Notes under the pieces: generated by a model
Seen by the model: only the letters and a program-made list of their open reading frames with translations
The model's database searches: none
What the model was told of the DNA's origin: nothing
Made by a program: the position numbers and the translations under genes
Part shown: positions 856 through 56,446 of the stretch, in pieces
Position numbering within the stretch: position 1 is the first letter of the stretch
Layout: each line of letters begins with the position of its first letter
Source: Amoebophrya sp. A120
Lineage: Eukaryota; Protista; Dinoflagellata
Direction of reading: 5' to 3'
NCBI GenBank assembly: GCA_905178155.1
Contig: CAJINV010000003.1
Location: 7,611,882-7,675,881, forward strand
DNA length: 64,000 nt

Positions 856-3382
856 CTACTGGGACACAGTAAGCCCGTCGAGAATCAGCGAGATGTTCCG
901 CACGCCGGTTTTTTCCTCGTCCTCCACTTCGTCGTCTCCGTCGTAGAACGGATCGAACTCTAGCACGTAGCCCAACTGGAGAAACTGGCGAATCAGTTCC
1001 GTCGCTTCCTCTACGTAGCGCCTTCCAGACGTCCCTTCGAAGACTATCTGTTTCGGCCTTGCTTCTGGGCCGTATGTTAAACAGTGCCGGCGCACGCTCC
1101 TCATTATGTCGAAGTCCAGGCCCTCACAGTCTAACTGGAGCAACTCCGGGCGCTGAACGTTGTAGACTGCCAGCAACTGCGTGTAGCTAACCGCAGGGAC
1201 CGTTTTAGAACTCTCGGCGTCCACTATCCCGAGTCGCTGCAACCGCCCGTAGAAGTAGCTGTATCCTGTGTAAAAACGTCCCCACCCCAGAGTCGAGATG
1301 GGGATTTTGCAACATAAACCTAGAACTTTTGGGGGTCACGCATCACAAGTTGCAGTCCGTAGTGTAGTGCAGGTTCGCAAGGCCAGCTGCATCAGAAATC
1401 CATCTGCTCATCCTGGTCACAGCATTACAAATGCCGAAACACGATTGGAAATGCCTTTCATGGGGAAGCGCATTACAAGTGTTCCTGTCATTGCAAATCT
1501 GCATGACAACTCTGGGGTGGCTACGTTTTTACACGGGATAAGCTGGGTCGCTGGTTCACGCTGGCGCAAGCGGTTGCGAGCTGTCCCGTGTGGTAGCAGG
1601 TCCAGCATTTCGCTCGCTGATGGAGAGAGCACGCGCAGCCCGTTCGCCACGACTTTTCCAGTTCCACAATCTTGTCCTTTGGTACGAAGTAGACTGGTAT
1701 GCATTGCAAATCCATCCGGGTCTGGATTATCATGCGAAGCGTGGTCATTCCCCCCGCAAGGATCTCTATTGAGAGAGTTACAACAATAAAAGCATTTGAA
1801 GTAAACTACCTAAGAATACCTAAAGCAAAAATTATACTACGCTAGGAAAAATAGATCCTGGTTTGAAAGCATGAATTTTCGTGCTTTGGAACTTGCTATC
1901 GTGAGTGCAATTCTGGAAGTGGATATTTAGGGCTTGAGCGAGAAGAAGGAGAGGGCAGTTGTGTGCAGAGAGGCAAATAAGCATGACAGATTTGCAGAAT
2001 AGAAGAGGAGGTTAGGAGGAAGAAGAAAGAAAAGGTTAGGAGGAAGAAGGAACGAGCAGAGCACTTCATAACTTTTGCGTTCTTGTGGTCTGCTGGTGAT
2101 GAACGTCTTCACCAACGCCTTAAGCGCCGGCCTAAACCTGCCGTTTGCCTACGGGAAGCAGACCGATCATGATCCGCGGCTCCAGCCTCGCGCAACCCTG
2201 CAGGAAAAGACACCGGTGGGCGCAGGCGCAGCTAGCTTTTCTCACTGCGCTCAATCTCTCATCATGAATTTAAATTAATGGTTAGAGCTAGAGCTAGAAC
2301 AGGACACAGCGTATCTTTATGCCTGATCTTCGGCATTTTTCGCACATATTAATTGGGATAGGATGCATTTTACCACGTGGAGCCATGTGCTGCATTTTGA
2401 ATTCGTTAATACATTTTTCTGAGTTTGTCATGCAAAAGATTCATATTGCATAAAGCGTCACTCTATCTGGACCCAGACAGATCCGCAGAGGATAACTGTG
2501 GCGGGCTTGGAATATTTCTCCAACGCCACGACATACGAAGCTTCGTGATCCGTGGCCGAACACTGCGGCGCTTTTTCCGTCTTGCCTGTCGGCAGACTGC
2601 CGGGCTGCTCTCCCCGCCGGTCTTCCTCTGCCGGCGACGCCTCGTGTACGTCCCGCCCCCGCGGAACCCCAACCATCGCCACATTGGCCAGGTTGAGGTT
2701 GCTATGCTGCGGTAGTTCCTGCAGGACCCAAGGGATCACGTCAACCGCCAGCCCATAGATATTCTCAGCCGGCTCCCGCATCCACCTGTGCCACTTTTTG
2801 TAGTAGTGATAGTTTCCAGCTTATCGTGAGAAAAAGTCTTACAGTTACACATTGTGTTGCGGGACAAGCTCAAGCAACAGAGATAAAACCTTTGTCATGT
2901 CGAAAATGCTTGCGATGCTCGTTCTGTGAAAGCTTTTTTTCGTGATTTCCGCATTACGCGTTTTCTTTGTCATGCAGGACAGCACTCACTGTGTTGCTGA
3001 AGCTGCAGCAAGTGTGTCACCGTAAAACTTTTTCCTTATCCTTGCATAAAGTGCTGCACGAAGAAAAGGACCCGTCTGCCAACGGAAACACCGCGTGGCT
3101 GATGGTGTTGTAGTTGCTCGTCCCTATTTCGCAGAAGTGGATCACTCGGCGCGGGCTCCCTGGCGACGGTTGATACTCCGTTGACAAAAAACGAGTCAGC
3201 TCGCACTCCTCCGCAGAACTTAGGGGCTCCATCCATGGTTTTTGCCCTGCGTCCCGTCGCAACCGCTTGGCATCAGGTACCGCTTCAGAACTCCCACCAT
3301 CGCTAAGGACTTTCGAAAGATGATTCTCCGGCGGGCTGCTTCGACGCTTTCCCGTCGGTGATGCTTCCGGCACATCAGTCAT
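856..3382 (-). CDS. FkbM-family SAM-dependent methyltransferase-like protein, multi-exon
   Basis: Motifs are spread over the exons: FCEIGTSNYNT (motif I-like), GLAVDVIP...NVAMV, and PELLQLDCEGLDFDIM...QIVFE (KxDxEG-like). Removing element 1262-1540 plus one TSD joins NQRPS|YFYGRLQRL. The middle intron boundaries (about 1765-2470) are uncertain. Confidence 0.65.
1262..1540. mobile_element. Introner/MITE family A (279 bp), TSD AGCTG
   Basis: TIR tatcctgtgtaaaaacgt...acgtttttacacgggata; agctg at 1257-1261 and 1541-1545; frame restored on removal. Confidence 0.95.
2822..3042. mobile_element. Decayed introner-like intron, compatible with GC-AG splicing
   Basis: Inner inverted repeat gaaaaagtcttacagttacaca vs reverse-complement gaaaaagttttacggtgacaca; left end tatc; TSD decayed; removing the element plus 5 nt keeps frame. 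Confidence 0.55.
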
Positions 3383-5503: not shown

Positions 5504-8500
5504 TCACGCAGCAACCCGCTCAAACTTAAGCTTGGCCCAAAATTCCGGAGTCGCAAGCTCCGACTTTTTCAAATATTCCACGAACCGAGCGTTGACTCTG
5601 GTCCGCTCGCATACTTGTTTCAGCGTGCGCTGGATAGAGGGCTCGTCCCGATCCTTGAAGAAGGCCTCCGTTTGCTCGGCGCGCTCAAATGTGCTACCAC
5701 TGCAGGACACAGACACCACGTGCTGCAGAAGCGAACCTGATGGTTTGCGAATCCTCACTTGTAGCTAGCATAAGGAGCACTTGGCGTGACACCGCAGAAA
5801 AAAAATGAAGAACAAGAACATGTGCGTAACCCTGACATAACAACTGTGGACCTCAAACAAGAGGTCATGCAGCAAAACACAAATAGAGCATAAAAAGTAC
5901 TGTTTGCGCTCGCGATTCTTTTTTTGATCGTGTCGTAATTTTCTCGCATCCAATCAAAGATGAGCACATTTCCAGGCTTGCCCGACCCTGAGACGCCGGT
6001 CATCGGATAGAAGAAGTCCTGGATCTTGATATCATAGGTTTCCTGCAACGTCTTTCTCTTGTACTCCACGTTTTCCACGTAACCGAGGGCGGCGTAGATT
6101 GCGAGCCGATGCGCTTGTTGCGTTTGCGGGTCCTTCATGATCTGCACAAGCTGCTCCCATACCTCGACGCATCGCTCTTTGTTTTGCAGCATGACGGTAA
6201 ACACGCTGCGCTTGTAATCGTCTGGCAGAAGCCCAGTCTTGCGATCCTGAACGAATGCCTCGTACCTTCGTGCCGCCTCCGCTTGCACCGCCGGATCCGA
6301 AGGCGCAAACCTTCATGTAGTTCTACTTCTTTCGGAAGGTGTAATTCCATTTTGCTTTTTTTGTCTACGCGAGGCTTTTTCGCATTGATTTTCTCGTCAT
6401 AAAGTAATAAACTATTCCTCGAAACAAAGAGAAATCCATGTAGCAAAAAAGCCGCACGCCTCGCACAAACCGAAACGACTAAAAAAACGACCAGACTCTA
6501 AAATGAAATAGTATACGTGGACATGAGTCCGATCAAGACCCCTCGGAGTTGCTTTGTCAGATCGTCATCGGCTTCTTTGTGGTCCCAACCAAGCTCAGCG
6601 CAGGGTCTCTGAATGAGGTCGCTGACGAATTCTTGGAACTTGGTGTAAACACTTGATCCCATTTCTGGCAGCACGCGGTCCAAACCGTCGATCGCGGCTT
6701 TCAAAGCACACCACACGTTGCTGTTGTCCTCCTGGGCAAACCCACGCAGCAGAAAAAAAAGCGCGGTTGGATCTTCCAGGTGTCCCGACCGGCAGAGTTC
6801 CATGGTGTCCTGCAGTACTCCGATCCTGAATTAGCAATGTTTGTGGATTCGACCCTCATGACAATGCCGATTGCACTCGTCACAGAATATTAAGTACCGC
6901 ATGACTTTTAAATTAGTGCTGTGTCCATAGATGTACGAGTGTAAAATGCACTCCTCTTATTTTGCTGCTTCTGAGTTTCATGCAATGATGCTCTGTATCG
7001 TCGTTGCTTCAGGAATGAGTAAGCAAAATGGACTGCTAGCAAAAGTACCGGTCCTCGGCGCAAAGTTCCTTTGATGCGACCGCTTTTGCCAAATCCTCCA
7101 ACAGTGCAGTTCCCTCGTAGAGCACACGCACGGGCACAAATTGCCCCGCATTCACCTTTACCCACCGACTGCCCTGCGGGAGCTTGAAAGTCTGCTGCTT
7201 CTCGTATCCTGCGTAAACACAGGGCCCACGACACCCAGTAGTCACGATGGGGAATCTGCTACACAAATCAGCAAGTTTTGGCTGTCGCGCGTGACACACA
7301 CATGAGAAGTAGTACACAGGCTGCCAGGAAAGACACGTCGTGTTTGGCTAGTGCAGCCGGGTCACGAATCGACTTTCGTAATCATGTGATCTCTAGTAGA
7401 GCTCGAGCATGACAAGTTCGAGTTCCAAGATAGCATTAGAAAATGGGCACTCACGTGGCTGCGCAGGGGAAACATTTCAGGCACGCAGATTGGCATGATA
7501 ACTCTGGGCGGGCGGGGACGTTTCTACACAGGATATCTCGTTAAGAAACTGGATCTCCTCCTGGTAGCCGTTGTTCGTTGCGAGAAGTATTGGCACGGTC
7601 CAGATCTTCTCGTCATCTCCTTCCTGGACCGAGTTATCAGCCAAGTACCACCGCTGGCTCAGCTGGAGCGTGGTTGCGTCAGGCCGAGAAACGGTGAGAA
7701 CCGGGAACCTGCAGCACGAGGAATGGATGCATTTTTTTCGTTCTTTAGCGGATTCAAAATTTCTGAAGTAATGAAGGAGGTTTTAGATAGTAACTGCGCC
7801 AGCAAGGGGGCTGCTCCGAAAGCACATACCTACATTCTCGTGCCAGAATGCCCTTGGCACCTGATACCGACCGCTGCGCCACACTAAAATAGAAAATGCA
7901 CTTGTCTACGTACTCTATTGAGGTACTTTTTTTACCCCATTTGCTCGGTCCAGCCCTTCATGATCTCCGCCACCGGCTTGCCGCTGACCTCCTCCCAGGC
8001 CTTCCAGAGGTCAAAGGTTTGCGTGTTGCCATACTTGTGCCGCTCCATGTACAAGCGCAGCCCCTCCTGAAACTTCTCCTTCCCCAGCGTGGCGAAGATC
8101 ATCCGGCACACGCTCCCGCCCTTGCAGTAGCTGATCGCATCGAAGATCTCGTCCACCTGTTCGGCCTTCGGGATGGGCACCTGGATCGGGTGCGACGACC
8201 GCAAAGAGTCCAATCGCAGCGCCGCCGCCTGGTCGTCGCACACGAAACTTTCCCAGATCCGCCACTCGGGGAACAACGCATCCGCGGAGAAGGTCTGCAT
8301 AAAGTTCGCAAAGCCCTCGTTCAGCCACAAATCATTCCACCACTCCATGGTCACCAGGTTTCCGATATCCCACAGAAAAAAGTTGGCAGGGCATATTTTG
8401 TAATGCAAAAATAAATACACAGAAAGATCTGTCATGGGCGGCCTCATAGCATGCTGCTTAGGATACGCAATACAGTTTTTTTTGTGTATTTATTTTTGCA

Positions 8501-10143
8501 TTACAAATGTGACCTGCCAGCTTTTTTCTGTGGAATATCCGAACCACTGGTGCGCCAGCTCGTGGGTCACCACGCTGGCCACTCGCTGCTTTCGCGCGGT
8601 GGAGGTTTTGGAAACGTCCAGTAGCAAATCAATCTCGCGGTAGGTGACGAAGCCCCAGTTCTCCATCGCGCCCGCGGCGAAGTCGGGGATGGCGGCCATG
8701 TCGCATTTGGGGAGCGGGTAGGCGATCTGGAAAAACTCGTTGTAGAATTCCAGACACCGGGTGGCCACCTCCAGCGAGAACGACAGCTGCTCCGCCTTGC
8801 CCGGCACCGACATGCACCGCACCGTCGTCTTGGGCCCGTGCACGCCCGCGGTTTCTTGCGTCAGGTAGTCCAGTTCCCCGACCAGGAACGCCAGCAAGTA
8901 CGTGCTCATCTTGGGTGAGGTGCCGAACTTGAACGTGACAGTGTTGTCCGCCTCGTTACTGATTTTTGACACCTCCGGCATATTGGAGAACGCCTGGAAC
9001 TTCTTGTCCACAACCATGGTCACGTCGAACACGCTATGCAGAGGCAAACGGGTGGGGTGAAAGAGGAGGCGGCGTAGTCCTACAAAGCCTTGTGTCGGGG
9101 GCAACGCCAGTGGCTGCTACTTTCTCTTATACCGGTAGTCTCCTGCTCCTCTGTAGAAGTTCACCGAAAAATGCGCCTCAAAAGATCCAAGGGTGGTCTG
9201 AGGAAAAAAGTACTTGTTCAGTGCTAGTCAAGAAGTGCGAAAGACGAAGACGCGCGAGAAAGACAAATTGATGTTGATAGCAAAAGTATAATGCATGTCC
9301 GCGTCATTAATGACATAATGATAATCTTTATATTCGTTTCTTCGGTCGTGTCTTCACTATCATGATCTGTTTGTTCAGTAGCAGCTGCACATCTCGAGTG
9401 GCAGCCCAGATTTCGCCCCCGTTTGCATCTACACAATTCGCTTTTCGTGCTGGCTCATCCACGCAGGGAAAGCAGCGGCGCGCGTCGATGGCCTCGAACT
9501 GCGTTACCGCCAAACGCCGTTTCTGTCCAAGCGTGTCCACATAATTTGATTGGTAAAACCCGCACATCTGGTCATTCAAAATACCTAGAATAACAAATCA
9601 AATGAAGATTTGTCGCCAACTCACTACGTACGTCACCACGTGCTGGCAACCTGCGTCTAGCCATACCATAGCAAGAACGAACTGTAGTCAGGCAGTCGAA
9701 ATATTACGCGCTCGGATCATCATGTTGATATTTCAAAAGATACGACGCGCTTTCACGCTGCATCTCCCATTACATTCGCATTCCAAGAAAGCAAAAAGTA
9801 GGAACTATAACGTACCATCGAACTTTGGGATGCACAGCTTCCCGACGGCTTCGCCGACCGGAAGAACGTGGTCCCCAAAAGAAATTACGACGGTCGTTTC
9901 TTTTGGCTTGAAGGTGATGCTCTCGGCCGCCAGTTTTTCTCCCGTTGCCGCGGGCGTGAAAAAGGCATCACTGAAGCAGAGCTCCTTAGCATTCAGGTAC
10001 AGCTCTGAGGTCGCAACCTCCACGTCGTAGGTCACTTCCAGCTTGCCGGAGAATACGCAGCGGTCCAAGTCCGGTCGCAGCTCCAGTTCGTACAAAATAG
10101 GCACGGCATCGTCGGGCAGAATTGCCCGATCGATTTCCGCCAT
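5504..10143 (-). CDS. M1 family aminopeptidase (puromycin-sensitive type) with ERAP1-like C-terminal domain, 9 exons
   Basis: [34 protein letters not shown]|[27 protein letters not shown] and WTEQMGFP motifs. Five GT-AG introns plus elements at 7205, 8366 and 9035. Confidence 0.95.
7205..7535. mobile_element. Introner family A, diverged (331 bp), TSD TCTCG
   Basis: tatcctgcgtaaac...tttctacacaggata; tctcg at 7200-7204 and 7536-7540; removal gives EIQFLNE|KQQTFKL. Confidence 0.9.
8366..8537. mobile_element. Introner with long (about 60 bp) TIRs (172 bp), TSD TCCGA
   Basis: tatcccacagaaaaaagttggcagg...ttgtaatgcaaaaataaatacac is mirrored at the right end; tccga at 8361-8365 and 8538-8542; splits HQWFG|NLV. 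Confidence 0.95.
9035..9435. mobile_element. Decayed introner, compatible with a GA-AG intron (9034-9439)
   Basis: tatgcagaggcaaacggg vs reverse-complement tgtgtagatgcaaacggg (15/18); TSD decayed; removing 406 nt gives PARKA|VFDVT. Confidence 0.65.
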
Positions 10144-11041: not shown

Positions 11042-14000
11042 TCAGTTCAACAGTGTGAACTGCTCCGGCCGCAGCTCTCCGAAGTACTGCATGATGTTTT
11101 TGAAAAAGCTTTCAACCACTTTCGTCACGTTGGTCAATTCGGCTTTGAACTTCAGAAAGTCGTCCCGGGAGGCCCCTGAGCTACTAGCGGTAGAAGCGGA
11201 AGCGGCGGCTGCTCCGCTCCCTGCCGAAGAGGAGACGCCAGCCGCTGCCACGGACGCGGATGACCTTCCCGCCCCGCGCGCGGCGGACGCGCTTGTTCCC
11301 GCATTTGCGGCGACGCCTGCAGTGCCGCGCAGGTCGGACTTGATGAACGGATTGCTTTCGAACAGCGACTGCAGCTGGTCTACCTTCTGCTCGAGCTGCC
11401 CCTGCTGGAACTCGAAAAACTGGTTTGAGCCTCCCAGGTAATACGCCACTGCATAGGTCCACTTGAGCATTATGCAAGAAATGGGATTCCTATACTGTAA
11501 CTTCGTGGAACGGCGTAACATGGACGATGGGTGCGTCTGTCATGCTGCTCATGCATTGCACTTGCAGGACCCATTCACACGCATCTTCAAGTAGTACCAT
11601 CGATCTGCGCATGACAGGGTTTTCTTTCATCCTCATGCCAGACATAACTATGCTGCTCCGCCAAAAAAGTATACAGTTACACATTTTTTTTTCTTGGATA
11701 AGCATGCGCCGGCAATCAATTACCTGATGAACGTGTAAAGTGGATAATCGGAAGTAAGTGCCCACACCCCAACATCTTCCTAGCAGCACAACGCACTTAG
11801 TCTTAATTTCCATTTTGCGCTCGTCAAAATCAATCGGTACGCAGCACGGTGGACTCTAGCGCATCCATCACTACATGCGATGTTCTACTACTCGGTGCAT
11901 TCATGATATTTCTTCAGTATTTCTTACCTGTTTTATAGCCTCCTCTAGGAACAAGACATCGTCCCAATTCCCGAACCGCCGCTGTAGATCCTCCATTTTG
12001 CGTCGCACCTCCTCCCGAGTCTTCTTGGAAGCGATAGTCTGTGATTGCGAATGCGCAGCGTATCGTTCGTAGAAGTGTGCATACCTGTAAAGAAGATGCA
12101 AGTTGGAATGGTACGAAAACGGAGTCCGAACGGCAAAAATTATCTGGTCGCAGGCGGTTATCGCTTGCTGAAGCGGGGAGACAAAAATTCTAGCTTGCAA
12201 AGAAGATCCGCATGCTCACTTGACGAGAAGCAAGTTTGTTCCCTACCTGGCAAGATTTTTTTTGCTGATCTCCTTCTCCTCATCTGGCTGCATGAACTTG
12301 TTGCAGGGGCGTCCATCCCGAGTGTGAGAGTAGTTGTAATCATCCGCAAGGCAAAGCCAGCAAAACTGGTGTCCACAGCGACAGACGATGTGCATGCACC
12401 CTGTAAAACATAATCGCGCAGGCAGAAATAATCTTTAACTTTATATGCTTCATTCTATTATTTTAAGTGCTACACTCCTCCGTAAAAGTTAACTTGCATG
12501 CTTCATCTCGTGGTACCCTGCGGAACAACATGAGTCCCAAAAAGATCTTTTTCGTCCAGGTGAACGTCCTTCCTTTATGCTCCAGTTCCGGTTGAAAAGT
12601 GTCACTTCCTATAGGCACGACATGCGCGAAAGAAGACGCTCCTGCTACGTGTGGCCGACATAAAAAAAAACAGATCCATGTGGTTGTACCTTGGTTTTTC
12701 TCGATTGGGTTTTTGCACTTTGGGCAGGATTTGGTGTTCGCCAAGATCCAGGTCACATTCTGTGCTTCATCTTGATTCTTTTCGAGCCATTTAGCGACAA
12801 CGTGGCAGTAAACACCAGCGTGCGCCTCGTGGTTGCAGGTGAAACACCACTTGTACTCGCACGATTCGCACTCCACTTCGCGGCACTGCAGCGGTTGCGC
12901 TGACGCGGGGAACATCGAGTCTCTTCCCGGTGCGGCGGATGATGTGGCACCCGAACTACTGCTGGTCCCGGCGGTGGCGTTGAAATTCGCGAGCAAGGCG
13001 TCTTCCCGGATGTCGGGTGGGGGAGCAGGGGGCTCGGGCTCCGCATTGCGCACCACCTATTAGTTTGGAAGAAGCTGCCAGGTGTCATATCAACTTCTAG
13101 TCCTGTCGGCGAATAGAGTCTGCCCTCATCTCACACACATTCCGCTTCTTCGTGCTCGACAACTAATTTTTCTACTCCTAAGAGACCGGCGCCACCAGGC
13201 GACATTGCGATGGATTTAGGCCGTAGAATCTTAAAGCTGCTTCTTCTATATTTCTTTTCTTGTGTTTCGTCGCTACAAGTTGTAAAAAACATCAATACAG
13301 CAACGATGCCACAGTAAACAATACTCTCATGCGTCGTCGCACTCCTGCAGCTGCCTCGTTGTACCAAGCCTGGGCAGCCGCTAGCCTCTCCGCTACGGGG
13401 CGCGGGCCGGCGCCACCGCCGTCGAGGCCGAACCCTGGTGGTGCTACGGCGGGCAACACTCCGTCACGCTGTGGCGCCATGGCAGCTGGCTGCCCGGTTG
13501 CTCGACCAGCATTGGCGCCGGTCTTCCCGCGTTTCTTCCGCTGGTTTTGGCCCCCATCCTCCTCTCCCGCATCGTCGTCGTTTGTCTTTTGTGCGCTGGT
13601 GGTCTCTGCGGCGGGCCGCTTCGAAGACTTTAACCATGCCATGTCTCGCGCGTTTTCCATCGTGCGGCAGGGTTCGTTTACCAAGATGCAGTTAGCGCAG
13701 TCTGGGCTGGGACACCACTTGCAACGCTGCTGCATGTCCACGAAGCTGCAATATTTTTTTCTTGATACCTTTTCGAACGATGAAAATCTGTGCATCATGA
13801 TCTCAATCACGATCCACGGAACCAACTTCTAGCCGTTTCATTTCTATAGATTCATGACGCGAGAAAGCACTGCTCGGTCTCCTGTGTACTGCAGTTACTT
13901 ATGGCCAATAAGAACAACTTCTACTTTTTGGGGCATTGCATTCAAAAGTCGGCAGAAACGAAACGGTAAAGATCTGGTTGCAGCAGTGCTAAGTACTCTT

Positions 14001-29802: not shown

Positions 29803-30781
29803 CTACAGGTTCGGTTTGATGCGCAGGTAGTTCGGCATGCGCTCTGCCTTTCGCACAGGCACGAAGGATTGGATGTCGTAGCAGGTCACGATCGGCGCCG
29901 GCTGCACTTGCCCCGCAGCGGGCATTTTGCCGAAGTTCACGCTGCGAAATCTCTTCACTTCGGCCTCACGGTAGCTGTGGTTGAAAGGGCTGGGCTTCAG
30001 GTTGTTCACCACATTGAACTCACCCGTGGTGCTGTTAACCTCCGTGATCCAGTGCCCGCTGTTGGGGTTCTGCTCGGGGGGTGGCACGGGCTTGGACGCG
30101 GAAGCGTAGATGAACCCGTTAATGTCGTAATTGTTCAACTTCTGGTGCTTAGTGGGCTCCCATCCACTGCAAATTTGCCTGGGTCTGGAAATATTAAAGT
30201 TGACCTTGTATTGTTGTCTGTTCTTCAATTTTCCAGTTCCAGTAGATTCTAGTGTATGACCCACAGTAGCTGTGTTGTACTAGCTTTGTTATTCTTTGTC
30301 ATTTTTGTAATCATGCGCGCTGCGAATATCATAGATGGGCAACAAGCATTCGGAAAATCCGTCATGCTTGGCTGACGTGACCAGAGTTTCTCGTCCACAG
30401 TTCACCAGCATAACATGTTCATCCCAGACCCAGATCGAGATTTGCAATGCATAGCTCCACATACGGATCGCCTGCTTTGACCTTATCGCGCTGGGAGAGG
30501 TCCCAGGTTAAGCAAGACCGCACACCCGACTGCGCAACGTTCTTTTTGAGCTCTTCCGTTTGTGTCGTCATGCGCACGACCTGCCCATTGCGCTTTTGGA
30601 TCCAGTCGTCACCCACCACCCGGAAATGGTAATTGCCGGTCCCGAAGGCGCTGGCCCAGTAGGACCGTGGCTCGCTGTGCGCACGCACGTCGCCGCGCCC
30701 GTAGGTGGCAGGAGGATTGGAGCCGACCACCGGCGTTGCCGGATTCGGCACTAGCTTCGTGTGCACGGGGTTGCTCGGCAT
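29803..30781 (-). CDS. Hypothetical Pro/Asn-rich protein (about 226 aa), two exons
   Basis: Two ORFs join in frame (DPYVE|PTKHQK) on removing element 30161-30453 plus one TSD. Confidence 0.7.
30161..30453. mobile_element. Introner related to family B, diverged (293 bp), TSD GCTCC
   Basis: catccactgcaaatttgcctgggtctggaa...tcccagacccagatcgagatttgcaatgcata; gctcc at 30156-30160 and 30454-30458. Confidence 0.88.
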
Positions 30782-45400: not shown

Positions 45401-48400
45401 CGTTTCAACGGGGCGGCGGCCCCCGAGATGGGATCTTTGTCGTCCAGCATGAGCTCAAACATGGTTCCCTGCACGTGGGCGTCGTTCCACTTCTTCTGGA
45501 TCTTCTGCAGCCACTGCGGCAACGGAATCCGCGGAACCGGGTTGCCGTACCGCTGCATCACGGCCGGGATGCATATGATTTTCAGGATGGACGCGCCCAG
45601 CCGCTCCTTGTAGTACCCCCAATCGATGATGTCCCGCATGTCGGTAGAAACCAGATTTTTATCGTTCAGCCACTCCTTCAGATACGTGCGCTTCAGCGAG
45701 TCCTCCAAGTTGAACACCTTCATGGGAATCGCGCGCTCCGTCACCTTCGCGCCCACTGGCTTCCGGGCAATTACCAAATGGCACGTAAGCTTCTCGTCAT
45801 CCAGAATCTGCGGACCGAGGATGTACGCCAACCGCTTCGCGCAACAAATCTGAGTTTTTGCGTTCGATTATCCTTCAAGAACTACATCGTGATCATTCGT
45901 GATAGATATTAGAGAAAGCAGCAGTTCCGCGTTTGTTCAGAAAGTGCAAGAAAACGACCACACGTATGAACGTGTTTGTTTACTCATGGAAGAACTACAA
46001 TGCATGATGATGATGATGATGGTGGCCGAGATGAATGTTGATGATGCTATCGAAAAAAATACCTGCACGGATTTCTGGCCGTCCGCTGTGTCGTTGACGG
46101 ACTTCGACATGGATTTGGTTTCGGATACGAGAAAGGTGATATCGTCGTCCGTGAGAGAGGCCCCGCGGCTATCCAGCACGTCCACCCAGCGATCCGCGAT
46201 GCGGCCCAGCTCCTGGTAGACTTCTGGCCGGGAGGAGCCTTTGAGGAAGGCGCCAGATCTGAAGATTTCATCTTGGAACACCTGAATCATTTTTAACTCG
46301 CCGCGGCGCTTCACCTCAAAGCCCTTCAGCTCCGCGATGCTGCCGTCGTCCTCCCAGACACAGCATCAACTGCAAAAATGTCTGGGTCTGGAAGATTGCA
46401 ACTTGTCATGCTGTTTTTGGACTCTAAAAAATTTTGTATTCGATGACCAGCAAGGGGGGCGCCGTTTGTGCTACACGGACAGGGCATTTCTCATGCGGAA
46501 GGTGCATCAGGAAGCCCTCTAAATGTCTGCGATGCTAGGTCATGCATTACAGGCATCATGGTTCATGAGAAATATGCATGACAGATCTTGCATTCTTCCA
46601 GACCCAGACATTTTTGCATTTCATACACAGTACCTTTTTTTCAGCATCTTGTCCTCGTCCGTGGAGGCAGGCAGGATCATGCAGCGATAGGGCCCGTCGA
46701 CCTCGAACAGGATACTGTTTTCCTTGGACACTTTCCACTCCGTGGCCTTCACGATCTGCGATTTGTTCTTCCCATCCGCGTTGTTCGCGGCCAGAATCTC
46801 CTTCTTTTGCTCCTCGGTGAGGTTCTCCTGGGCCTCCCCGGTTTTCTTGTCCACAAACACCTCCGTGCCGTTCTGGTATTGATGGTTGGCGTACTTTTGG
46901 TCCACCCGCAGATTCAGCACCGAGTTCGGGTACGTCATTTTTAGCTCCTTCCCGGCCTTGGTCTTGAACTTGAACGTGTCAGGGAAGCTTTTCGGGATCA
47001 TGCATGTTATAAGAGTGCCAGGATCTTCGAACTTTTCAAGGTTAAAAAAGTGGCTTTGCCTGGTTTAGGTAGTAGTACTCGTATTGTACTATTATTGTGT
47101 AAGTACGCATGTCGTCTGATTTGACGCATCTTCAGCGAGCGCAGTTTTGAACTACTACAGCCAGCTAGCTTAGCAGGTCGAGTGAATACATTTGGTCAAT
47201 TAATTTCGACGCATGTTCTTTTGCCCTGTCTAGCTTTTTCATTCAACTGTGAAAGTTTCGAAGATCCTGGCGGTTGCATACACCAAATCCCGTCCGTGTC
47301 CAACTCGATGGGCAGCCCTACGCGGTCCACAAACTCGCGCGCCTCGCGAATCAGGTTACTGCCCGTGAAAGTGGTGATCCCCGCCATCTCCATGCTGTGC
47401 CACCTCGCGCCCGTGCGCATCACGTACCCGTAGAAACTGTTCAAGATGCACTTGTGCGCCAGCTGCAGCGAATCGTAGAGCAAGCAGCGGTCGTTGGCCT
47501 CCATGATCTTCACCGGGTCGCCGGACTCAATCGCTTTCTCCTTCTTCTTGCCCTATCCTGTGGCAAAACATCCCCAATTCTGCATGCTCAGCGTGTTTCT
47601 CATGCGGAGCCCCATGAGAAGCGTTTTCTACTCGTGCCTTGGAATTTGTAATGGTGCGCCAATCAGAGTAATAGGCTAGTAGATCTGTGACGCTGCTGAA
47701 CAAGCTAAACACGATTGCACTACGAGGCCACGTTTGTCATGCGCAACAACCTAAGCTGGCTGATTTGTCTAGCAAATCTCCCATCTTGACTATGGAGTGG
47801 GGAAGTTTTTACACATGATATGCCCCACTCCTTGTTCTTCCGCTTGTACACGTACCGCCGGTCGCGGAAGTTGCGGACCGTGTCCACATAGAAACTGTTT
47901 TCCCGTTGGCACACAATATCGACCTTGTCCTCGTAAAGCGAGTTCTTCAACCGCTTGTACACTTTCTGACTGTACGCGCGCGCGGCTGCGATGGTTTCCT
48001 TCGCCTGGTGTTGAGCGATGATTTTTATTTTTCCGCGTTGTGGTCACTAACTGAAGAACGACTGGAAACGCGAAAAAAAAATCGACAAATTTATTGGATT
48101 CTCGAAACAAGCGAAAAAAAAAATAAAGTGCTGTTCATTTAGCAAGCACGAAGTTGATCCGTAGTTGCCCTTCATCACAAGAACAGCTGATTGCCGCACA
48201 AAATGGAGCCCCAGTTTTTATTCCAACTAAAGAGTTTTAATACCTGTTCGGCTTCTGTGAGCTCCTTCCATGGCACGCGGGTGAGCTCTCCCTTCTCACG
48301 GTGGTTGTACTTGTTCTGAGGTTCGGCCAACTTGTGCACCAAGTTCCGCACCTCGCCCTTGGAGGTCTGGAAGAGCTCGTACCGACACTTCCACTCCATT

Positions 48401-51400
48401 TTCCGCTGGCAGTTGTTCGCGGGGTCGTTGTAGGAGCACGACTGGCAGAATTCGGGGGACACCATGGCGCTCGGTTGCAAGCGATTCGACAAAATGATGT
48501 TCGGATACATCGTATGAGAGTGCACAACTCGTCCCCCTGCCCCTCATTTGAAGTGCTTGAGCGGCAACACAAGCAACGGCAGAGATGGATCATGGGCCTT
48601 CCGCATGACAAATCTCCTGCACACGGATTCTATAGTGCTGTTGGAGCTCCCGAAATTTGCACTGCGGACAGAGCTTAGAGCAAGTGCGTGGATTTGCCTT
48701 TTTGCATTTTTACAAATGAGGGGGACCAGGTGGGGTTATGCACTCTCATACATCGCCCCGACATCGAGATGGTAGATCAGCGGGTTGTCGTTCAAAACCA
48801 CCCGCTTCGCTCGCTTTTTGATGGTTTTCCCGCCCTGCTTCACCCCCGCCGTGCCCTCGACCTCTTCCCACTCCACGACCTCGAGCTCGTACGGCATCTC
48901 TTGCTGCATGGCCGCGTCCGTCGGCGTCAGCCCCTCGCCCGCCGGCGTGTACGCCGAGCGCAGGACGCCGAACTTCTCCTTTTCGTAGGCGATTTGGCGC
49001 GCCACCTTTTCGGGGTCGCACAGGGACAACAGCTGCTCCTTCAAAAGGGCCACCTGCTCGTCGAAGTTCGCGACATCCTCGATCTTCGTGTTCTCCTCCT
49101 GTTTATGGATTGCAAAAATATCTGGGTCTGGAAGATTGCACCTTGTAATGCTGTCTTTGGATTCCTAAAAAATCTGTATTGCATGACCAGCAACAGGACT
49201 CCAGTTTGTGTTACGCGTATCGTATCGTTTTGACATTTGACTCCTGTCAGGGTGGCGTTAGAACAGATTTAGCCTCTGCCAATACCGTGGCGTTAGAACA
49301 GATTTAGCCTCTGCCAATACCCTAGGTGGACACCCGTTCCACGCGGAGAGAGCGGAAGGGCATTTCTCATGCGGAGTAGGCATTAGGAAGACGTCTAAAA
49401 ATCTGTGTTGCTAGATCATGCATTAGAGGCATCAATCATCATACAAAATATGCATGACGAGTCTGCATTCTTCCAGACCCAGACACTTTTGCATTTGATA
49501 CTGTTCGCAGAAGAACTTGCAGGTGTCGTACGCCTCGTTCAGCAGCACCTGGAAGGCCGCCGGGTCCAGGCGGAACCGCTCCGGGATGTCCTTGCGGAAC
49601 ACCCCCACCCGCATGCACTCCACGCGCGCCCCCTCGTAGGTCTTCTGCTCGATCAACCGCGAAGTCCCCTTGTGATACTCGATTGCCTGGTCCTCGTGCT
49701 TGTTGGGAAACACCACGTTGCACCGGAACGCCTCGCGCATCAGCAACGACTCGCACAGCGTGCCCGACCCCTTGCGCAGCACGTCGTCGGGGGGAAAGGG
49801 GATGATGGAGCACAGCGCGAAGAGAATGTGCCAGCGTCAGCAGTTGGAAATCGACAGAATGGCTTTTTAAGCTAAAGCGAGCGAACCTAAAAACGCACCC
49901 CATAGGGCACCTTTCGATGCAAGCAATGCCACAGCACACGGAGCGTCTATGTTGTTTGCACTGAAGGAGGCAACTGAGGCAGAATGTAAAAAACCTGACG
50001 AATCTCATGGACGGGGCTGCTGAGAAGCCTGACTGACGCCCTCGGCGTTGCTCTAAACAGCTTGACACTCTCGGCGTCTGGAAAATGTGTAGTCGTGCGC
50101 CGCTTTAGAAAATGTGGATCCAAGGACTACAATGGGTAACAAGTAGAAGTACCATCGATTTTATACATCACAAATCATTTTTTCCGCCTTGCGGACTTCC
50201 AGCGTGACGCACTCCCATAGATGAAGTCGTGGATGTACTTCATGAAGAGGTAGTAGGTGGCAAGCGCATCGGACACGGAGTACTCCGCCATTTCCTGGGG
50301 CCGCTCCTGGCAGTAGGGCGTCATCAGCTCCGGGTCCACCTCCACTGGGTCGTACTTGAGTTTGTATTTGGTCACCGCCTTCAGGCCGCGACTCCCCATC
50401 GGCAGGTAGGAGTCTCGCTGCACCCAGGCGTAGCAGTCCAGATGCACGATCCACTTACCGGTGAAGAACCCCTGCCGCTGCAGCGCGATGCCCACCTCCT
50501 TGTACATGATCGTGGACCAGCCCGGCTGCTCCGGGCCGGTGTACTCGCCCAGCAGGATGTCCGCGCGGGTGCGGACAAAGCCGAAATCGAAGAAGTCCCC
50601 GTTGAACGTGGAGATCACGTGGGGCCCGATCTCCCGGATCAGCTCGAAGAACTTTAGTAGGGTCGCCTTCTCGTTGGGTTCGTTGTAGATTTTGAAGTAC
50701 CCCTCGTACTCCGGCTTCGGCGTGTACTCGAAGTCCGTGATGTCCTCCGAGACGATCTCGCGGTTGACGATGAGAAACCCTAACCCGTCGGCCATGATAT
50801 CAAATGCAAATATGTCTGGGTATAAAATTTGTATTGCATGAGCAGCAAAGAAAATGCAACTTTTCCTACGCGGAGAGGGCATTTGTCACGCGGAATAGGC
50901 ATCGAGAAGCCTTCAAAAAATCTGTGATGCTAGGGCATGCATCACAGACATTATGGCTGCTCATGCAAAACGCGCATGACAAGTCTCAGAATCTTCCTGA
51001 CCCAGACATATTTGCAATTCATACATGAGCGAGATCAGCGAAATGCTGTCCTTCTCCGCGTCGGGAAACTTCAACGGCTCCTATCAACTGCAAATATGTC
51101 TGGGTCTGGAAACTTGTAATGCTGTGTTGGGAATAGTGAATGCTCTGTGATGCACAGCCAAGCATGAGAAATATCTGCGCTTCTTTATGTTGCGTTTTTC
51201 GCATGACAAACTGCGTTTTTGCATGACAGGCAAAAGGGTCTCTTCTTGAACACGCATCATAAACTTCTTGGTCGTGCCAGACAAGCATGGCAAATCAAAA
51301 TCTCGCAATCCTCCAAACCCAGACACTTTTGCATTTCATAGCTCCTTGGTACACTCGATGTCGTAGGCCATGATGCGCCACGAGGGCTTGTCGTCGCACT

Positions 51401-53186
51401 CCAGAATGCGGTGCTGGGTGAGCTGGTAGTTCACCTTGTCCTCGTTCTCGTCCTCGTACAGCACCTGCTTCGGGAAGTCGACCTCGTACCACAGGCCGCA
51501 GCGGATGTCCTTGTCGATGGAGATGCGGTTCATGTAACTCACGTCCCACTCGAGCTTGCCGAAGATCCAGTGGTCGATGCGCTCGTCCTGTTTCTTCAGC
51601 AGGTCCAAGCTGTAGATCTTCTCCTCCCGCTATGACAGTGCACAACTCCCCCTCCCCCTCATTTGTGTTGCATGAACAGCAACACAAGCGCTGGCAAAGA
51701 TGCAGCTTTTGCATGACAAATTCCTAGGGGATTGTAGTGCTGTTTCGGATTCCGGAATCTGTCATGCAAACCGTACTAACAGTAACAGGCAGAGGGTGGA
51801 CTTGCAATTCTGCATGACAAATGAGGGGGAGGGGGAATTGTGCACTTTCATACCCGCGTGCCGCGGTTCCGCCGCGTCAGCTTCTCGTACTCCGTGACCG
51901 CCTCCAGGCCCTGCTATCGAAATGAAAAATGTATGCCCCCATGTTAATCCCAGAATTTGCAAGTGTGTGTGTTGCATAAATTCCCAGTGGAAAAAATATT
52001 TTCCGCTTTGCTTGTCGTACACAGCATCACAAGTTTTCGAGCCAGAGTAGCAAAAATTTTCGTTGCAAGCCCAGCACGCTCCTGGTTTGTCATGTCGGAA
52101 CTGCTTCGCGCGCCTACAATCTGCATGAGTGACAGTCTTCGTCCAAGCACGCATAGATAAAGAGTTTTGCGCTTGAAAACCTTATGCAACGCAAATATTT
52201 CAAACTTCCAGGGTGGGGGCGGCATTTTGCAATGTGATACCTGACGCAGGTGGTTCTGGTTGTCGAACGTGACCTTTATCAGCTTGCGTTTGCGCCCGAC
52301 CAGGTGGTCCTCCAGCGACAAGTCCTCCTTCTCGACCACCGTCGCGCGACACACCTGCTTCACTCCGGTTTCGCTCGTGCAGAACTGTTCCTGCAACGTC
52401 CCCCGAATCAGCTCCACGATGCGGTCGGGACAGTTCTTCACCAAGCGAACGAGGAAGTAGGGTCGGTACAAGTGTGTCGCGCGAAACGTGCCCCCATCCC
52501 GCCCGATGCAGTACAACAGAAGACCCGCGAGCTCGCGCCCACTCGCCTCCGACCGGTGGATGGTTTCCCGCATGTTGAAGAGGTATCTGGTGGAGAGAAG
52601 AACATTTTTGGAGGCTTTAGCTTATTTTCAAATGCTACACTTCTGGTATTCTGAGACGAGGAGCGCGTCCTAATCTTTAAAATTTTTTTTGATCGATATT
52701 AAGTATTCTTCGAACAACATGGACACCGAGGCTGTCACACCTCCGCGTATAAGTACTTACTGCAGGAGCTCCTTGCTTATGCAAAAAAGTACTACCATGA
52801 TCGCCTAAGAAGCCAAGTACTTACCCCGTCTTTTTCTCGCCACGCTTCATCACGTGGACTCCAAATTTCTTCTCGAGCTCGACATCCTCGTCGCCAGGCT
52901 GTTTCCTTCGCACTTGCTGTGGTGCATTTTCATCGTCGTCGTCAATGAGCCCGTTATCTCCGTCTGCCTCCCCCCCAACGTTTCTTCTCTTTCCCCCGTC
53001 GGCTTTTCCGCCCTTCTTGCCGGCATCCTTTCCCTTGCCCTTTTTGCCCTTCAGTCCACCGCCAACGCCGCCGATGAAATTGGCCCCACTCGGGTTTTTG
53101 CTGTTTCCCTTCCCTTTTCCCTTTCCACCCTTCGTGACGTATCGGCCATTGACGACCGCGACTTTTTGGTTCGTCGGACCCCCCAT
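39476..53186 (-). CDS. POLE: DNA polymerase epsilon catalytic subunit A (about 3150 aa, 17 exons)
   Basis: Exo[16 protein letters not shown], Exo[10 protein letters not shown], ExoIII YSVSDA; polymerase motifs [36 protein letters not shown] and [13 protein letters not shown]; CysX CQSC...C...CQREN; C-terminal CysA (CPGC...CVAC) and CysB (CGNC...CIYC). Confidence 0.97.
40557..40835. mobile_element. Introner family A (279 bp), TSD ACTCC, opposite orientation to the 1262 copy
   Basis: tatcctgtgtaaaaacgtcccca...tggggacgtttttacacaggata (perfect 23-bp TIR); actcc at 40552-40556 and 40836-40840; removal gives LEE|FLNQD. Confidence 0.96.
40878..41143. mobile_element. Introner family B (266 bp), TSD TTCAG
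   Basis: tatcacctgtaaaaatgtctgggtctggaaga...tcttccagacgcagacatttttacgtttggta; ttcag on both sides; removal gives HLVAE|TIEED. Confidence 0.93.
46364..46625. mobile_element. Introner family B (262 bp), TSD CACAG
   Basis: Family B TIR; cacag at 46359-46363 and 46626-46630; removal gives KKRYC|[15 protein letters not shown]. Confidence 0.95.
47008..47280. mobile_element. Introner with partly decayed ends (273 bp)
   Basis: Inverted pair gccaggatcttcgaa...ttcgaagatcctggc; TAT...ATA termini; TSD catgt/cacca decayed; removing the element plus 5 nt gives DTDGIW|CMIPKSFP. Confidence 0.8.
47554..47820. mobile_element. Introner family A (267 bp), TSD TGCCC
   Basis: tatcctgtggcaaaacatcccca...tggggaagtttttacacatgata; tgccc on both sides; removal gives KEWG|KKKEK. 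Confidence 0.93.
48513..48750. mobile_element. Introner family C (238 bp), TSD CATCG
   Basis: tatgagagtgcacaac...gttatgcactctcata; catcg at 48508-48512 and 48751-48755; splits polymerase motif A DVGAM|YPN. Confidence 0.95.
49104..49500. mobile_element. Introner family B (397 bp) carrying a nested insertion, TSD CTGTT
   Basis: Family B TIR; ctgtt at 49099-49103 and 49501-49505; removal gives FFCEQ|EENTK. Confidence 0.93.
49252..49321. repeat. Perfect 35-bp tandem duplication
   Basis: gtggcgttagaacagatttagcctctgccaatacc occurs twice (49252-49286 and 49287-49321). Confidence 0.97.
49821..50221 (-). other. Non-canonical intron (about 398 nt), probably a decayed introner
   Basis: Required to join KYIHDFI to [20 protein letters not shown]; only a 3-bp aga direct repeat; weak IR (gcgtca...tggaa); no AG at the junction. 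Confidence 0.7.
50798..51023. mobile_element. Introner family B (226 bp, internal deletion), TSD CATGA
   Basis: tatcaaatgcaaatatgtctgggt...acccagacatatttgcaattcata; catga on both sides; removal gives LISLM|ADGLGFL. Confidence 0.95.
51082..51340. mobile_element. Introner family B (259 bp), TSD GCTCC, opposite orientation to the 24080 copy
   Basis: Family B TIR; gctcc at 51077-51081 and 51341-51345; splits ExoI DIECTKE|PLKFPDA. Confidence 0.95.
51631..51852. mobile_element. Introner family C (222 bp), TSD CCCGC
   Basis: tatgacagtgcacaactccccctccccctcatttgt...acaaatgagggggagggggaattgtgcactttcata; cccgc on both sides; removal gives RGTR|EEKIY. Confidence 0.96.
51915..52239. mobile_element. Introner, family D-like (325 bp), TSD CCTGC/CCTGA, spliceable as GT-AG
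   Basis: tatcgaaatgaaaaatg..gccccc / gggggcggcattttgcaatgtgata; the minus strand reads CAG|GTATC...TAGCAG|G; removal gives NHLRQ|GLEAV. Confidence 0.85.
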
Positions 53187-53791: not shown

Positions 53792-56446
53792 TCATCGCGT
53801 AAATGATGTAGTGACTACTAGCAGCCGAGAAGTGGCGCGGCGCATTTGATTTACGTTTCTTTTGAAACCTCCAGTTGCAGTCGAGATTGTGTGGGAGGGA
53901 AGGCCCAGGCCCCGCAGCCTCGTAATTCTAACTGCCATGTGCATGGTTCTCTCCACCTGTAACCAGGAGGAGGGGAGTGACAACAATGTAAGTATTCAGA
54001 TTCACTACAACCAGAGGCTCTTTTCAGAAAGCGTGACCCCGAGGCTGCATGACACCATCATAGAAATTTACTGCGTTTTCGTACATGAGTTTCTCTGCCA
54101 GTTCGCGGTACCGTTCGAGCAGCGTCGTGTTGGCCAGTAACCCTTTCTCCTGTATGGAAAAACTCCAGTGAGCCACCACTGCTCGCCCGAGAGCCGCCGC
54201 GTGCTGATTTCGCCGTTTTGGGTGCTGTGTGGAAAACTCGCCCTCATCGTCAGTGGAAATACCATCCCAGCCTGTCAGCCGTTATTTTCATTCATACGAT
54301 CAGCAAGACACTCATTTTCCTCGCATCCCTGTACTACCCAATCTAGGGCTGTGAACATTGGACTTTGGAAAAACCCCAAAAGAGGAAGAAGAAGAAGTAA
54401 CACAGCCACGCTAACATTCGCGCCCCTTCGCGATCAGTTGTGTCTGCTCTCTCGTCGCGCTACATCAACGCCATGACCATATTAACAACGCACATGATCA
54501 ACGAAGCACAGTTGTTGACGTTGATCTTCATAGAACAATTGCAGAAACAATAAAATCGAGGTATACTAATGTCCGAGAAGTCTTCGTATTTGAAGGCGAA
54601 AAAGTTGATGTTCCATATCAAAGGGAAAAAAGCCCCCACCCCGTATCGGAAGCGGAAGATGCGCGAATTTGTGATGCTGTATTTGAGTACACAAATCAAC
54701 TTGTATTGCTAGAAGGTCAAGAGACGAAGCTGCGGCCTAAATTGTAGGCAATCTGTCATGCTGTTTCCCACTTCCAGTTGCCTCCTGTCATCCTGGAGCT
54801 GCAAGGCTTTCCCACGCTAGACAGCACTACAGTCCGCATCTTTTGCCTTCTAGCATCACAAAGCTGATTTGTGACCACAAATCTGCATCACAGATTTCCG
54901 TTTTGATATGGGGGGGGCATTTTTCATTGCAATATTCCAGTCCACGTGGCGGCTGATTCCGTCTGACATGGTTTCGTAGCCGTGTGCGTGGAGGTATGAG
55001 AGTGCACAACTCCCCCTCCTCCTCATTTGTCATGCGAAATACCTAGTTTACGCCTTGGCTCTTGGCACTGTTTGCATGACAAGTTCTGGCAGCCCAAATA
55101 GCACTCCACTCCTGTCCAAATTTGTCATGCAAAACCTGTATTCTTGCTGACGGTTGTATTGCTGTTCATGCAATACAAATGGGGGGGAGGGGGAGTTGTG
55201 CACTGTCATAGGAAGTCAAAGACCCCAAAGTCTAGCGTGCACAAACTGCCCTCCTCAATGCGGTGCAGCAGCGTCTCGTGCGCCCACGCGGCACAGTCCC
55301 ACCGGCGCCAGATGCAGTCGGAGTAGAACGTATGCTCGATCCGAAACTTCTCGTCAAGCATCACATCCTGCCGAAACGGCCACGCGTGCAGTTTACCGTC
55401 TTCCGGATTCGGTGCCGGCTTCTCTAGCCAGGGGTACTGCGCCAGTTCCTACGGAGCAAATTCATATTGTTTCCCGTCTTGCTGAACATCATCATATAAT
55501 TGTCTTGCTCAAGTAGTGGGATTTCTTCACCGTTTTTTTTTTCCTCGTTTGATATTGTTCATGGGTTTCCTACTTTCCGCAAAAAAACCGCCTTAACCAT
55601 GCCAGTATTGCTATTGGTACATCATGCTGTGAAAACTCGAACGAAAAAAAGACTGGAGTGCACCATTTGAATGTTAGGAACCAAGCTCGCATTTTTTTAT
55701 CAATAAGTATTTTTCAATACCTGGTGCACCGCGGACACGATGCCGTGATTGATCACGTTCGCGGAAACAAACAAAAACCGATCGCGCCGCTTCTCCCGAA
55801 TCAGCTCCGGGATCGCGCCGTCATTGATGAAGACGACGTCGTCGTCTATTTTGACGTAGTAGGCGCCGGGCTCGTCCACCACCTTCCAGATCACGTCCCA
55901 ACCGCCCCCCTCGATCGGGGGAATGAAGTAGGACCGCGGGTTTCGACGTTGCAGTTTGATCAGGTACTGCAAGTCGTTCATATCGTACTTCACCAGCGCC
56001 CACAGGACGCCATCGAGCACCCCTCCGTTCTCACGCAGGTTGCGCTCGAGGTAGGCGTTCAGCAGGTCGACGTAGGCCCGGCGACCGTAGTAGATCAGCG
56101 CGTATATCTTGATGTCTTTTAAGTCGTCGAAAGGGTCGTCCTTCCAGACGCATTCCGGATGGAGAGCGTCGTCGGTCTCCACGCGTCGCATTACGGGCAT
56201 TGCGGCAGCAGGGGGGAGCAACGACCAAGTGCTGGCCGACTGTAGGCAGAGCCAAGAGCCGCTTGCGGTGGTCCCCGCTAGGAGTACTCGTCGAACTAAC
56301 GTAGAGGACGCTTTCATCATCCCGCGAGGCCCTCTTGCTTCAGTCGGCCCCCGCTGCCGCCTGCGCCGCCGACACCATGCCGGCATTCTCATCCTTCCGG
56401 TGCCGATAAGAGGTACCGATACCAACGGCGCTCCCGTCTGAACCAC
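53792..56446 (-). CDS. Uncharacterised GT-A-fold glycosyltransferase-like protein, multi-exon, ends uncertain
   Basis: IYALIYYGRRAYVDLLNAYL...YYVKIDDDVVFI (DxD), VSANVINH, DWNINFFAF and AHWSFSIQEKGL...LLERY; two introners removed in frame. Confidence 0.65.
54616..54934. mobile_element. Introner family D (319 bp), TSD TTCCA
   Basis: tatcaaagggaaaaaagccccc...ggggggcatttttcattgcaata; ttcca at 54611-54615 and 54935-54939; removal gives VDW|NINFF. Confidence 0.92.
54995..55210. mobile_element. Introner family C (216 bp), TSD GGAGG/GGAAG, opposite orientation to the 48513 and 51631 copies
   Basis: tatgagagtgcacaactccccctcc...ggagggggagttgtgcactgtcata; removal gives VFDF|HAHGY. Confidence 0.93.

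Follow-up and report, generated by a model that had tools for sequence, protein, structure and literature searches.

The introners of Amoebophrya sp. A120 have been described by Farhat et al. (2021; PMC7789003), who report TAT-N7-AAA inverted ends, 3–5-nt direct repeats, 1954 introner families with 29,850 members, non-canonical introns with a mean of ~240 nt, RNA-seq support for A120 introns with non-canonical ends, and no cognate transposase in A120. Integrase-like frames have been reported in one A120 TIR introner family (Gozashti, 2025). The elements are thus not news, and the papers found give no settled account of how they are spliced.

Introners of Micromonas, Aureococcus and Polarella and non-canonical introns of Fritillaria share with the A120 elements a MITE-like origin, inverted ends and target duplications, but according to the summaries in PMC7789003 and PMC11282704 their splice dinucleotides, brought along or co-opted, are fixed and their removal is ascribed to the spliceosome, whilst none is favoured here. 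The nonconventional introns of euglenids (Nomura et al., 2025, PMC12501133; reviewed in PMC11282704) likewise lack GT-AG and have paired ends and flanking direct repeats, each cut lying at a set distance from the paired motif, the longer one at the 3′ side; they too coexist with spliceosomal introns. They differ in that the paired triplet is CAG/CTG, the spacers are N3 and N5–6 and the exon begins with a purine, and they belong to an unrelated lineage. In SOS splicing (Zhao et al., 2025; PMC12779559), described from human cells and C. elegans, pairing of inverted repeats triggers removal and RTCB is needed, with AKAP17A and CAAP1 as further factors. It takes DNA transposons out of mRNA, rarely at GU-AG and apparently independently of the spliceosome, and so resembles what is proposed for the A120 elements, whose ends are predicted to pair; but SOS splicing is imprecise and leaves indels whereas removal here is exact. 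The main text of PMC12779559 contains no mention of Amoebophrya, Euglena or introners.

Introners of the window

The window analysed here, 64,000 nt of the A120 genome, had been said in a first-pass annotation to hold about 21 elements of 151–397 bp in eight genes. All 21 were confirmed, each at the start assigned to it and all eight genes being on the minus strand, and a 22nd, degenerate element that had been missed was found in POLE at 49827 (Table 1). The ALDH gene is intronless, with an A25 relative at 63%.

Table 1. Introners and two of the genes that carry them, in window coordinates.
Feature	Position	Strand	Remarks
Introner, family A	1262..1540	−	Perfect 5-bp repeat; gene with weak FkbM methyltransferase match (below Pfam cut-off)
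Introner, A-like	7205..7535	−	In M1 aminopeptidase gene
Introner	8366..8537	−	M1 aminopeptidase, directly 3′ of HELAH zinc motif; no AG in any register
Introner, degenerate	11471..11700	−	Probably RBR (IBR/RING) E3 ligase gene; terminal stem not predicted
Introner, family D	18159..18480	−	
Introner	23883..24033	−	Shortest, 151 bp
Introner, family B	24080..24331	−	
Introner, B-like	30161..30453	−	Sense 3′ end ATG
POLE gene (DNA polymerase epsilon catalytic subunit)	39476..53186	−	3143-aa frame; 12 introners and 4 GT-AG introns
POLE introner, family A	40557..40835	−	Contig boundary and length agree
POLE introner, family B	40878..41143	−	Contig boundary and length agree
POLE introner, family B	46364..46625	−	Contig boundary and length agree
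POLE introner	47008..47280	−	Repeat 2/5 identical; upstream copy kept (Trp of DTDGIWC); contig piece end 47002
POLE introner, A-like	47554..47820	−	Terminal stem not predicted
POLE introner, family C	48513..48750	−	Within polymerase motif A (DVGAMYPN)
POLE introner, family B	49104..49500	−	397 bp; 35-bp internal tandem duplication
POLE introner, degenerate 3′ end	49827..50219	−	Repeat 3/5 identical; 398 nt removed; contig piece start 50219
POLE introner, family B	50798..51023	−	Contig boundary and summed length agree
POLE introner, family B	51082..51340	−	Summed length agrees
POLE introner, family C	51631..51852	−	Summed length agrees
POLE introner, D-like	51915..52239	−	Sole GT-AG-readable element (register −1); summed length agrees
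Gene of deposited protein P0242 (418 aa)	54024..56392	−	Splice model of 2 introners and 2 GT-AG introns
Introner, family D, P0242 gene	54616..54934	−	
Introner, family C, P0242 gene	54995..55210	−	Repeat 4/5 identical; upstream copy kept (Phe of DFH)

Fifteen elements of the window unite perfectly matching TAT..ATA termini with an error-free 5-bp direct repeat and terminal complementarity of at least 13/25, against a mean of 0.08 and a maximum of 1 in 50 Markov shuffles. The 5-bp target duplication that the first-pass annotation had ascribed to every element was perfect in 18/21, with one mismatch at 51915 and at 54995 and three at 47008. Families recur within the window and 127 loci were found in another assembly, so the elements are repeated in the genome; among 174 candidates picked without regard to the repeat it was perfect in 124. 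In other copies mismatches at repeat positions 1–5 numbered 2, 1, 4, 4 and 5, and the idea that they avoid positions 4–5 failed, all five positions being hit. Deviations were rarer in TAT than in the repeat (7/567 vs 25/735, p = 0.012), but TAT had been required for detection and the difference is therefore not counted as evidence.

The end logo fitted TAT, seven variable nucleotides and AAA; family C and the element at 47008 have TAT and the stem and lack AAA. The match to the published TAT-N7-AAA motif, together with the identity of P0242 described below, makes it virtually certain that these are the A120 introners, a likeness suggested earlier, and they do not differ in kind from the elements of PMC7789003. 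They are, accordingly, already published (Farhat et al., 2021). Their short length, inverted ends, fixed-length target duplication and high copy number are features of MITEs, that is, TIR DNA transposons that are non-autonomous, and both insertion orientations occur among the copies of the other assembly (query end 5′ in 42 and 3′ in 29). An internal motif common to the elements matched 35 times in the 5972 bp inside them vs four times in the 58,028 bp outside, and was absent from 4/22.

A terminal stem was predicted for 19/21 elements, the exceptions being 11471 and 47554, and that of 49827 sits 2 nt away from where the usual geometry would place it. Folding z-scores were below −3 for 18/21 and −3.0 for one more. 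A test of G-U wobble pairs gave no sense-strand excess (61 G-U vs 86 A-C, p = 0.08, in the wrong direction) and the sense strand folded more stably in only 47/121; the stems may thus be kept by DNA transposition alone.

Probable precise removal and position of the cuts

That deleting each element with one copy of its repeat restores the reading frame was borne out throughout: removal of element plus 5 nt left an open frame in 22/22 cases and retention introduced a stop in 22/22. The splice model of the gene at 54024..56392 equals the deposited protein P0242 (Amoebophrya sp. A120) letter for letter, its window exon being 100% identical. In the homologue-covered part of POLE the same deletion scored best for 8/8 elements; the organism's own POLE protein was absent among the matches of the POLE homologue searches. 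Contigs (not reads) of run X1, which we only guess to be RNA, fitted exact removal for 9/12 POLE elements. Contig gaps of 38, 295 and 742 letters equalled the predicted lengths and element-side piece ends lay as predicted in 6/6, the junction evidence from this one run being piece ends and lengths. Removal of the other elements rests on frame and protein evidence, and, since contigs lose rare variants, minor isoforms may occur. We conclude that the introners are very probably removed precisely at the RNA level.

The cuts do not follow splice dinucleotides. As the first-pass annotation had noted, ten named copies offer no AG in any equivalent register and a GT-AG reading is limited to 51915 (1/22 window copies); among the 100 copies of the other assembly GT-AG was possible in two and GC-AG in one. 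Neither GT nor AG was enriched in any register of these 100 copies, AG occurring at the four repeat positions 9, 7, 6 and 5 times (expected 6.6, 5.8, 8.0 and 6.6) and G preceding TAT in 26 (expected 33.3). The window had seemed to favour register −1 through GT (8/21) and AG (5/21), an idea that failed in the 100 further copies (AG in 6/100).

Imperfect repeats show which copy stays in the message. Among homologues, the residue that the upstream copy encodes is at 47008 Trp in 209/209 of those that have the motif, at 49827 Ile/Val in 207/211 and at 54995 Phe in 23/23, so that in each case the upstream copy is kept. These three informative repeats place the 5′ cut 0–2 nt before TAT, and the keeping of the upstream copy despite imperfect repeats speaks for a stem-set ruler rather than recognition of the repeat. 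Mismatches at positions 4–5, which could separate registers −2, −1 and 0, were found in no recognisable protein among the other loci. The earlier proposal, that the TIR stem and direct repeat are recognised and dinucleotides are not, therefore stands in part: dinucleotides are not used, recognition of the direct repeat is not supported, 47008 and 49827 being removed precisely with 3 and 2 of 5 positions mismatched, and recognition of the stem at the RNA level is what we infer. A stem-set ruler would, with moderate confidence, be the likely means by which the cuts are positioned. The window thus narrows the splicing question: it places the cut 0–2 nt upstream of TAT, shows that removal tolerates a damaged repeat and reveals no selection on the dinucleotides at the ends; POLE, an essential gene, offers clean test substrates. 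The dinucleotide-selection test and the identification of the repeat copy kept are added here; neither appears in the sections of PMC7789003 consulted, which also give no cut position.

Possible routes of removal

The explanation we narrowly favour, to which we give an even chance, is a spliceosome-independent cut-and-ligate system measuring from the predicted end-to-end hairpin. Judging from the anatomy of the elements, a transposase acting in trans would insert the element and duplicate 5 bp; once transcribed, its ends are predicted to pair into a long stem; the 5′ cut would then lie 0–2 nt upstream of TAT, matched by a 3′ cut 5–3 nt downstream of ATA, so that element plus 5 nt leaves whatever the flanking letters, a single general rule that we infer from the three imperfect repeats; and cleavage, by an endonuclease or RNA-based, would be followed by joining of the exons by an RTCB-type ligase. 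Whether the chemistry is non-spliceosomal appears to us evenly balanced. Should the route prove to be exact and independent of the spliceosome, nature would have in it a precise equivalent of the SOS splicing of animals, and it would explain a cheap genome-wide invasion of exons by transposons. The more specific version, in which A120 runs a domesticated, base-exact SOS-type splicing beside its ordinary spliceosome, with an RTCB-type cut-and-ligate system taking any TAT..ATA hairpin as its ruler irrespective of the flanking letters, is doubtful; if true, such a system would handle introns numbering in the tens of thousands, of which POLE by itself contributes 12. The text of the Farhat supplement gave no match for RtcB or AKAP, which is no evidence of absence.

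The euglenid signature (N3-CDG / CH′G-N5-6, then R at the exon start) was absent, the ends being TAT/ATA and repeat position 5 holding a purine in 61/100 copies against ~55 expected. Circular excision products have been reported for euglenid introns. Element-end-to-element-start joints in a DNA-like run were considered as circles and rejected, since each contig had single-copy depth; the joints are read as short exons between two elements elsewhere.

A rewired U2-type spliceosome, with U1's place taken by an adaptor or by the stem, introns beginning at register −1 (N-TAT) and the step-two AG check lost, is possible but somewhat improbable. A120 is published as retaining 83/89 spliceosomal proteins with U2, U4, U5 and U6, U1 snRNA being undetected, and a review reads Amoebophrya as a case of spliceosome adaptation. 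Register −1 lies within the allowed −2..0 range and showed the AG in 5/21 window copies mentioned above, and four of the six GT-AG introns modelled here start with GTAT (cf. N-TAT), which suits a relaxed spliceosome. The commonest A120 non-canonical sites listed in the literature all start with NT, but that list may reflect aligner choice within the repeat, and the 100 further copies retain no residual G at +1 or terminal AG preference.

Self-splicing or self-cleaving of the elements as structured RNAs is very unlikely: strong folding and the common internal motif would suit it, but the families differ in sequence and length, the motif is not universal, and a ribozyme would presumably be strand-specific, whereas both orientations occur.

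Removal in DNA, by programmed or transposase excision, agrees with the DNA transposon anatomy; it is largely refuted and highly improbable, as is the reading of these genes as pseudogenes with uninterrupted copies elsewhere. Contigs of the DNA-like run X5 pass from exon into element at an even depth of ~45, the X1 contigs identical to these exons also lack GT-AG introns, and the deposited P0242 corresponds to the model of this very locus. Use of cryptic nearby GT/GC-AG pairs, adding or losing a few residues, is scarcely credible: in-frame GY-AG pairs lie within 24 nt of 18/22 elements, but 4/22 have none, the net change is zero for 51915 only, conserved motifs would break, and the contigs agree exactly with +5 both in length and in where their pieces end, which refutes such use for the nine contig-supported POLE elements and the two in the P0242 gene.

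Introners in the window and their host genes

All 21 TAT..ATA-ended insertions of the first-pass annotation (introners, named here by start position) were examined, spanning 151-397 bp, and a degenerate 22nd was added. Most were recovered de novo by scanning the window for direct repeats enclosing inverted ends. A more permissive scan yielded 15 that combine exact TAT..ATA ends and an exact 5-bp repeat with 13 or more of 25 terminal positions paired, where 50 Markov shuffles gave a mean of 0.08 and a maximum of 1. The 5-bp repeat, described as common to all, is perfect in 18 of the 21, with one mismatch at 51915 and 54995 and three at 47008. Removal of the element plus one repeat copy (element + 5 nt), as had been claimed to restore the frame, gives an open frame in 22/22 cases; retention of the element gives a stop in 22/22. 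The splice model of POLE, which encodes the DNA polymerase epsilon catalytic subunit, yields 3143 aa after removal of 12 elements and four GT-AG introns; against a profile built from 40 of the long homologues, element + 5 nt was the best-scoring removal for 8/8 elements in the covered part, the other four lying outside it. Most homologues among the matches listed have ~1900-2600 aa, and the C-terminal half of this POLE carries long low-complexity insertions. Pfam matches among the host genes included an M1 aminopeptidase and IBR/RING domains, with 8 of the 21 scanned frames giving no Pfam match. All eight element-bearing genes lie on the minus strand, as does an intronless ALDH gene, an arrangement corresponding to the unidirectional clusters reported for Amoebophrya.

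Positions of features in the window
Feature	Position	Strand	Remark
POLE	39476-53186	-	
Gene of P0242	54024-56392	-	deposited A120 protein, 418 aa
ALDH	31502-33001	-	
22nd element	49827-50219		
Tandem duplication	49252-49321		perfect, 35 bp, inside element 49104
Canonical introns starting GTAT	48243, 46062, 55720, 54566		
Contig comparison region	39400-56000		
X1 contigs entering other flanks	40556, 46625, 49500, 51630		some contigs

Removal from transcripts and position of the cut

Contigs were compared from two sequencing runs, X1 (guessed to be RNA) and X5, which behaves like DNA, its contigs continuing from exon into element; two raw RNA runs placed on this region contributed 0 reads. The expectation that transcripts would lack the elements held in assembled contigs of one run, X1, which omit elements and GT-AG introns alike and support removal of 9 of the 12 POLE elements; such contigs are silent on efficiency and rare isoforms. 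The letters between the listed X1 pieces (38, 295 and 742) match exactly the prediction for removal of seven elements + 5 nt plus two canonical introns, albeit as summed lengths that may mask compensating errors, and 6/6 element-side piece ends fall at the predicted leftmost gap. The ends at 47002 and 50219 are discriminating, fitting retention of the upstream repeat copy, since retention of the downstream copy would place them at 47007 and 50224. The residue of the upstream copy is also that of the homologues: Trp at 47008 in 209/209 having the motif and Ile/Val at 49827 in 207/211 (270 proteins examined), and Phe at 54995 in 23/23 aligned homologues (51 matches). If one register (equivalent cut offsets of -2, -1 or 0 nt relative to TAT) serves all elements, the 5' cut would lie 0-2 nt ahead of TAT and the 3' one 5-3 nt beyond ATA. 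Some X1 contigs run from element ends into other flanks, so X1 also contains unspliced copies (pre-mRNA, UTR copies or DNA).

An exon of the gene carrying 54616 and 54995 matches P0242, named Amoebophrya sp. A120, at 100%, and the splice model translates to it with every letter identical; the P0242 model comes from the published annotation and is thus not independent of the RNA data behind that study (Farhat et al., 2021; PMC7789003). The accessible portions of that paper report more than 60% non-canonical introns and, for A120, 29,850 introners falling into 1954 families. Their inverted ends are given as TAT followed by seven variable nt and then AAA, with direct repeats of 3-5 nt; there the introner border position is left undefined and U1 snRNA was undetected. 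A different Amoebophrya has canonical introns and U1, according to the accessible part of PMC12005148. The present finding is therefore a rediscovery: the observation is real, confirmed and already known, and what is added here is constraints on the mechanism.

End dinucleotides

Independence from splice-site dinucleotides was borne out. The ten copies said to lack an AG have none in any register (0/10), and among the 21 noted elements GT-AG can be read at 51915 only. In-frame GT/GC-AG pairs lie within 24 nt of 18/22 elements, a pair with zero net change occurring only at 51915.

The family-B end pattern was found at at least 127 loci (L001-L127) in one other assembly among the matches listed. 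Repeat-blind detection among these matches gave 178 candidates, 174 after duplicate removal, of which 124 have an exact 5-bp repeat; exclusion of 26 with at least three mismatches (many being internal sub-matches) and one AT-rich case left 147, 145 with sufficient flank and 100 with a coding strand confidently called by a Markov model. At the chosen threshold this model was right for 22/22 elements of the window and for 97% of the coding windows kept aside as a test set. In these 100 copies, identified from DNA sequence alone and biased towards one family, a GT-AG reading exists for 2 and a GC-AG reading for 1, AG is enriched at no repeat position, and G precedes TAT 26 times against 33.3 expected. 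Repeat mismatches in the larger sample are spread over all five positions. Among the listed L001-L127 matches, the first repeat letter falls unequally on the three codon positions (21/31/48, p=0.004), so that insertion phase is biased; the commonest class corresponds to phase 0 at register -1. Sense-strand A occupies repeat position 5 in 35/100 copies against 21.8 expected, with no mirror T excess at position 1, a post hoc excess absent from the window elements.

Candidate routes of removal

We see about an even chance that introners leave by a structure-directed cut-and-ligate route. Complete indifference to end dinucleotides fits such a route and is hard to reconcile with the usual checks of the spliceosome. 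A rewired spliceosome is nonetheless a close rival, possible if not favoured: an introner cut at register -1 begins N-TAT, and four of the six modelled canonical introns begin GTAT. Most spliceosome parts are present in A120 according to the accessible text of PMC7789003, and the review PMC11282704, in its accessible part, interprets Amoebophrya in terms of an adapted spliceosome. Letters +2 to +4 of the GTAT introns are the same as those of an introner cut at register -1.

As to what a removal system might recognise, the first-pass annotation proposed the terminal stem plus the direct repeat. The repeat falls away, since removal occurs with just 2 or 3 of its 5 letters matching. For the stem, end-to-end pairing is predicted in 19 of the 21 elements (exceptions 11471 and 47554). 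In a set of 121 copies, positions 1-3 and 11-13 show pairing of 0.96-0.98, and the stretch between them values down to 0.55. Sense-strand G-U pairs are not favoured (61 G-U vs 86 A-C), and just 47/121 copies fold more stably as the sense strand. The stem is thus available but bears no sign of selection as RNA in these tests.

SOS splicing, the inverted-repeat-triggered removal of transposons from mRNA, is likewise structure-directed cut-and-ligate, but is described in the accessible part of PMC12779559 as imprecise and demonstrated in animals only. Euglena introns, as far as the accessible part of PMC12501133 describes them, have a paired triplet and fixed spacers, the 3' spacer being the longer. 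In the literature searched, with subscription journals mostly outside it, we found among the papers listed none settling the Amoebophrya introner splicing mechanism and none linking SOS splicing with introners.

An internal motif, GCAT[GTC]ACAA, noted in elements of the window and of L001-L127, has 35 occurrences within 5972 bp of element sequence and 4 in the 58028 bp outside; it is common to several families, its orientation is opposite between element halves, and it may serve a transposase as a subterminal site or bind a splicing factor.
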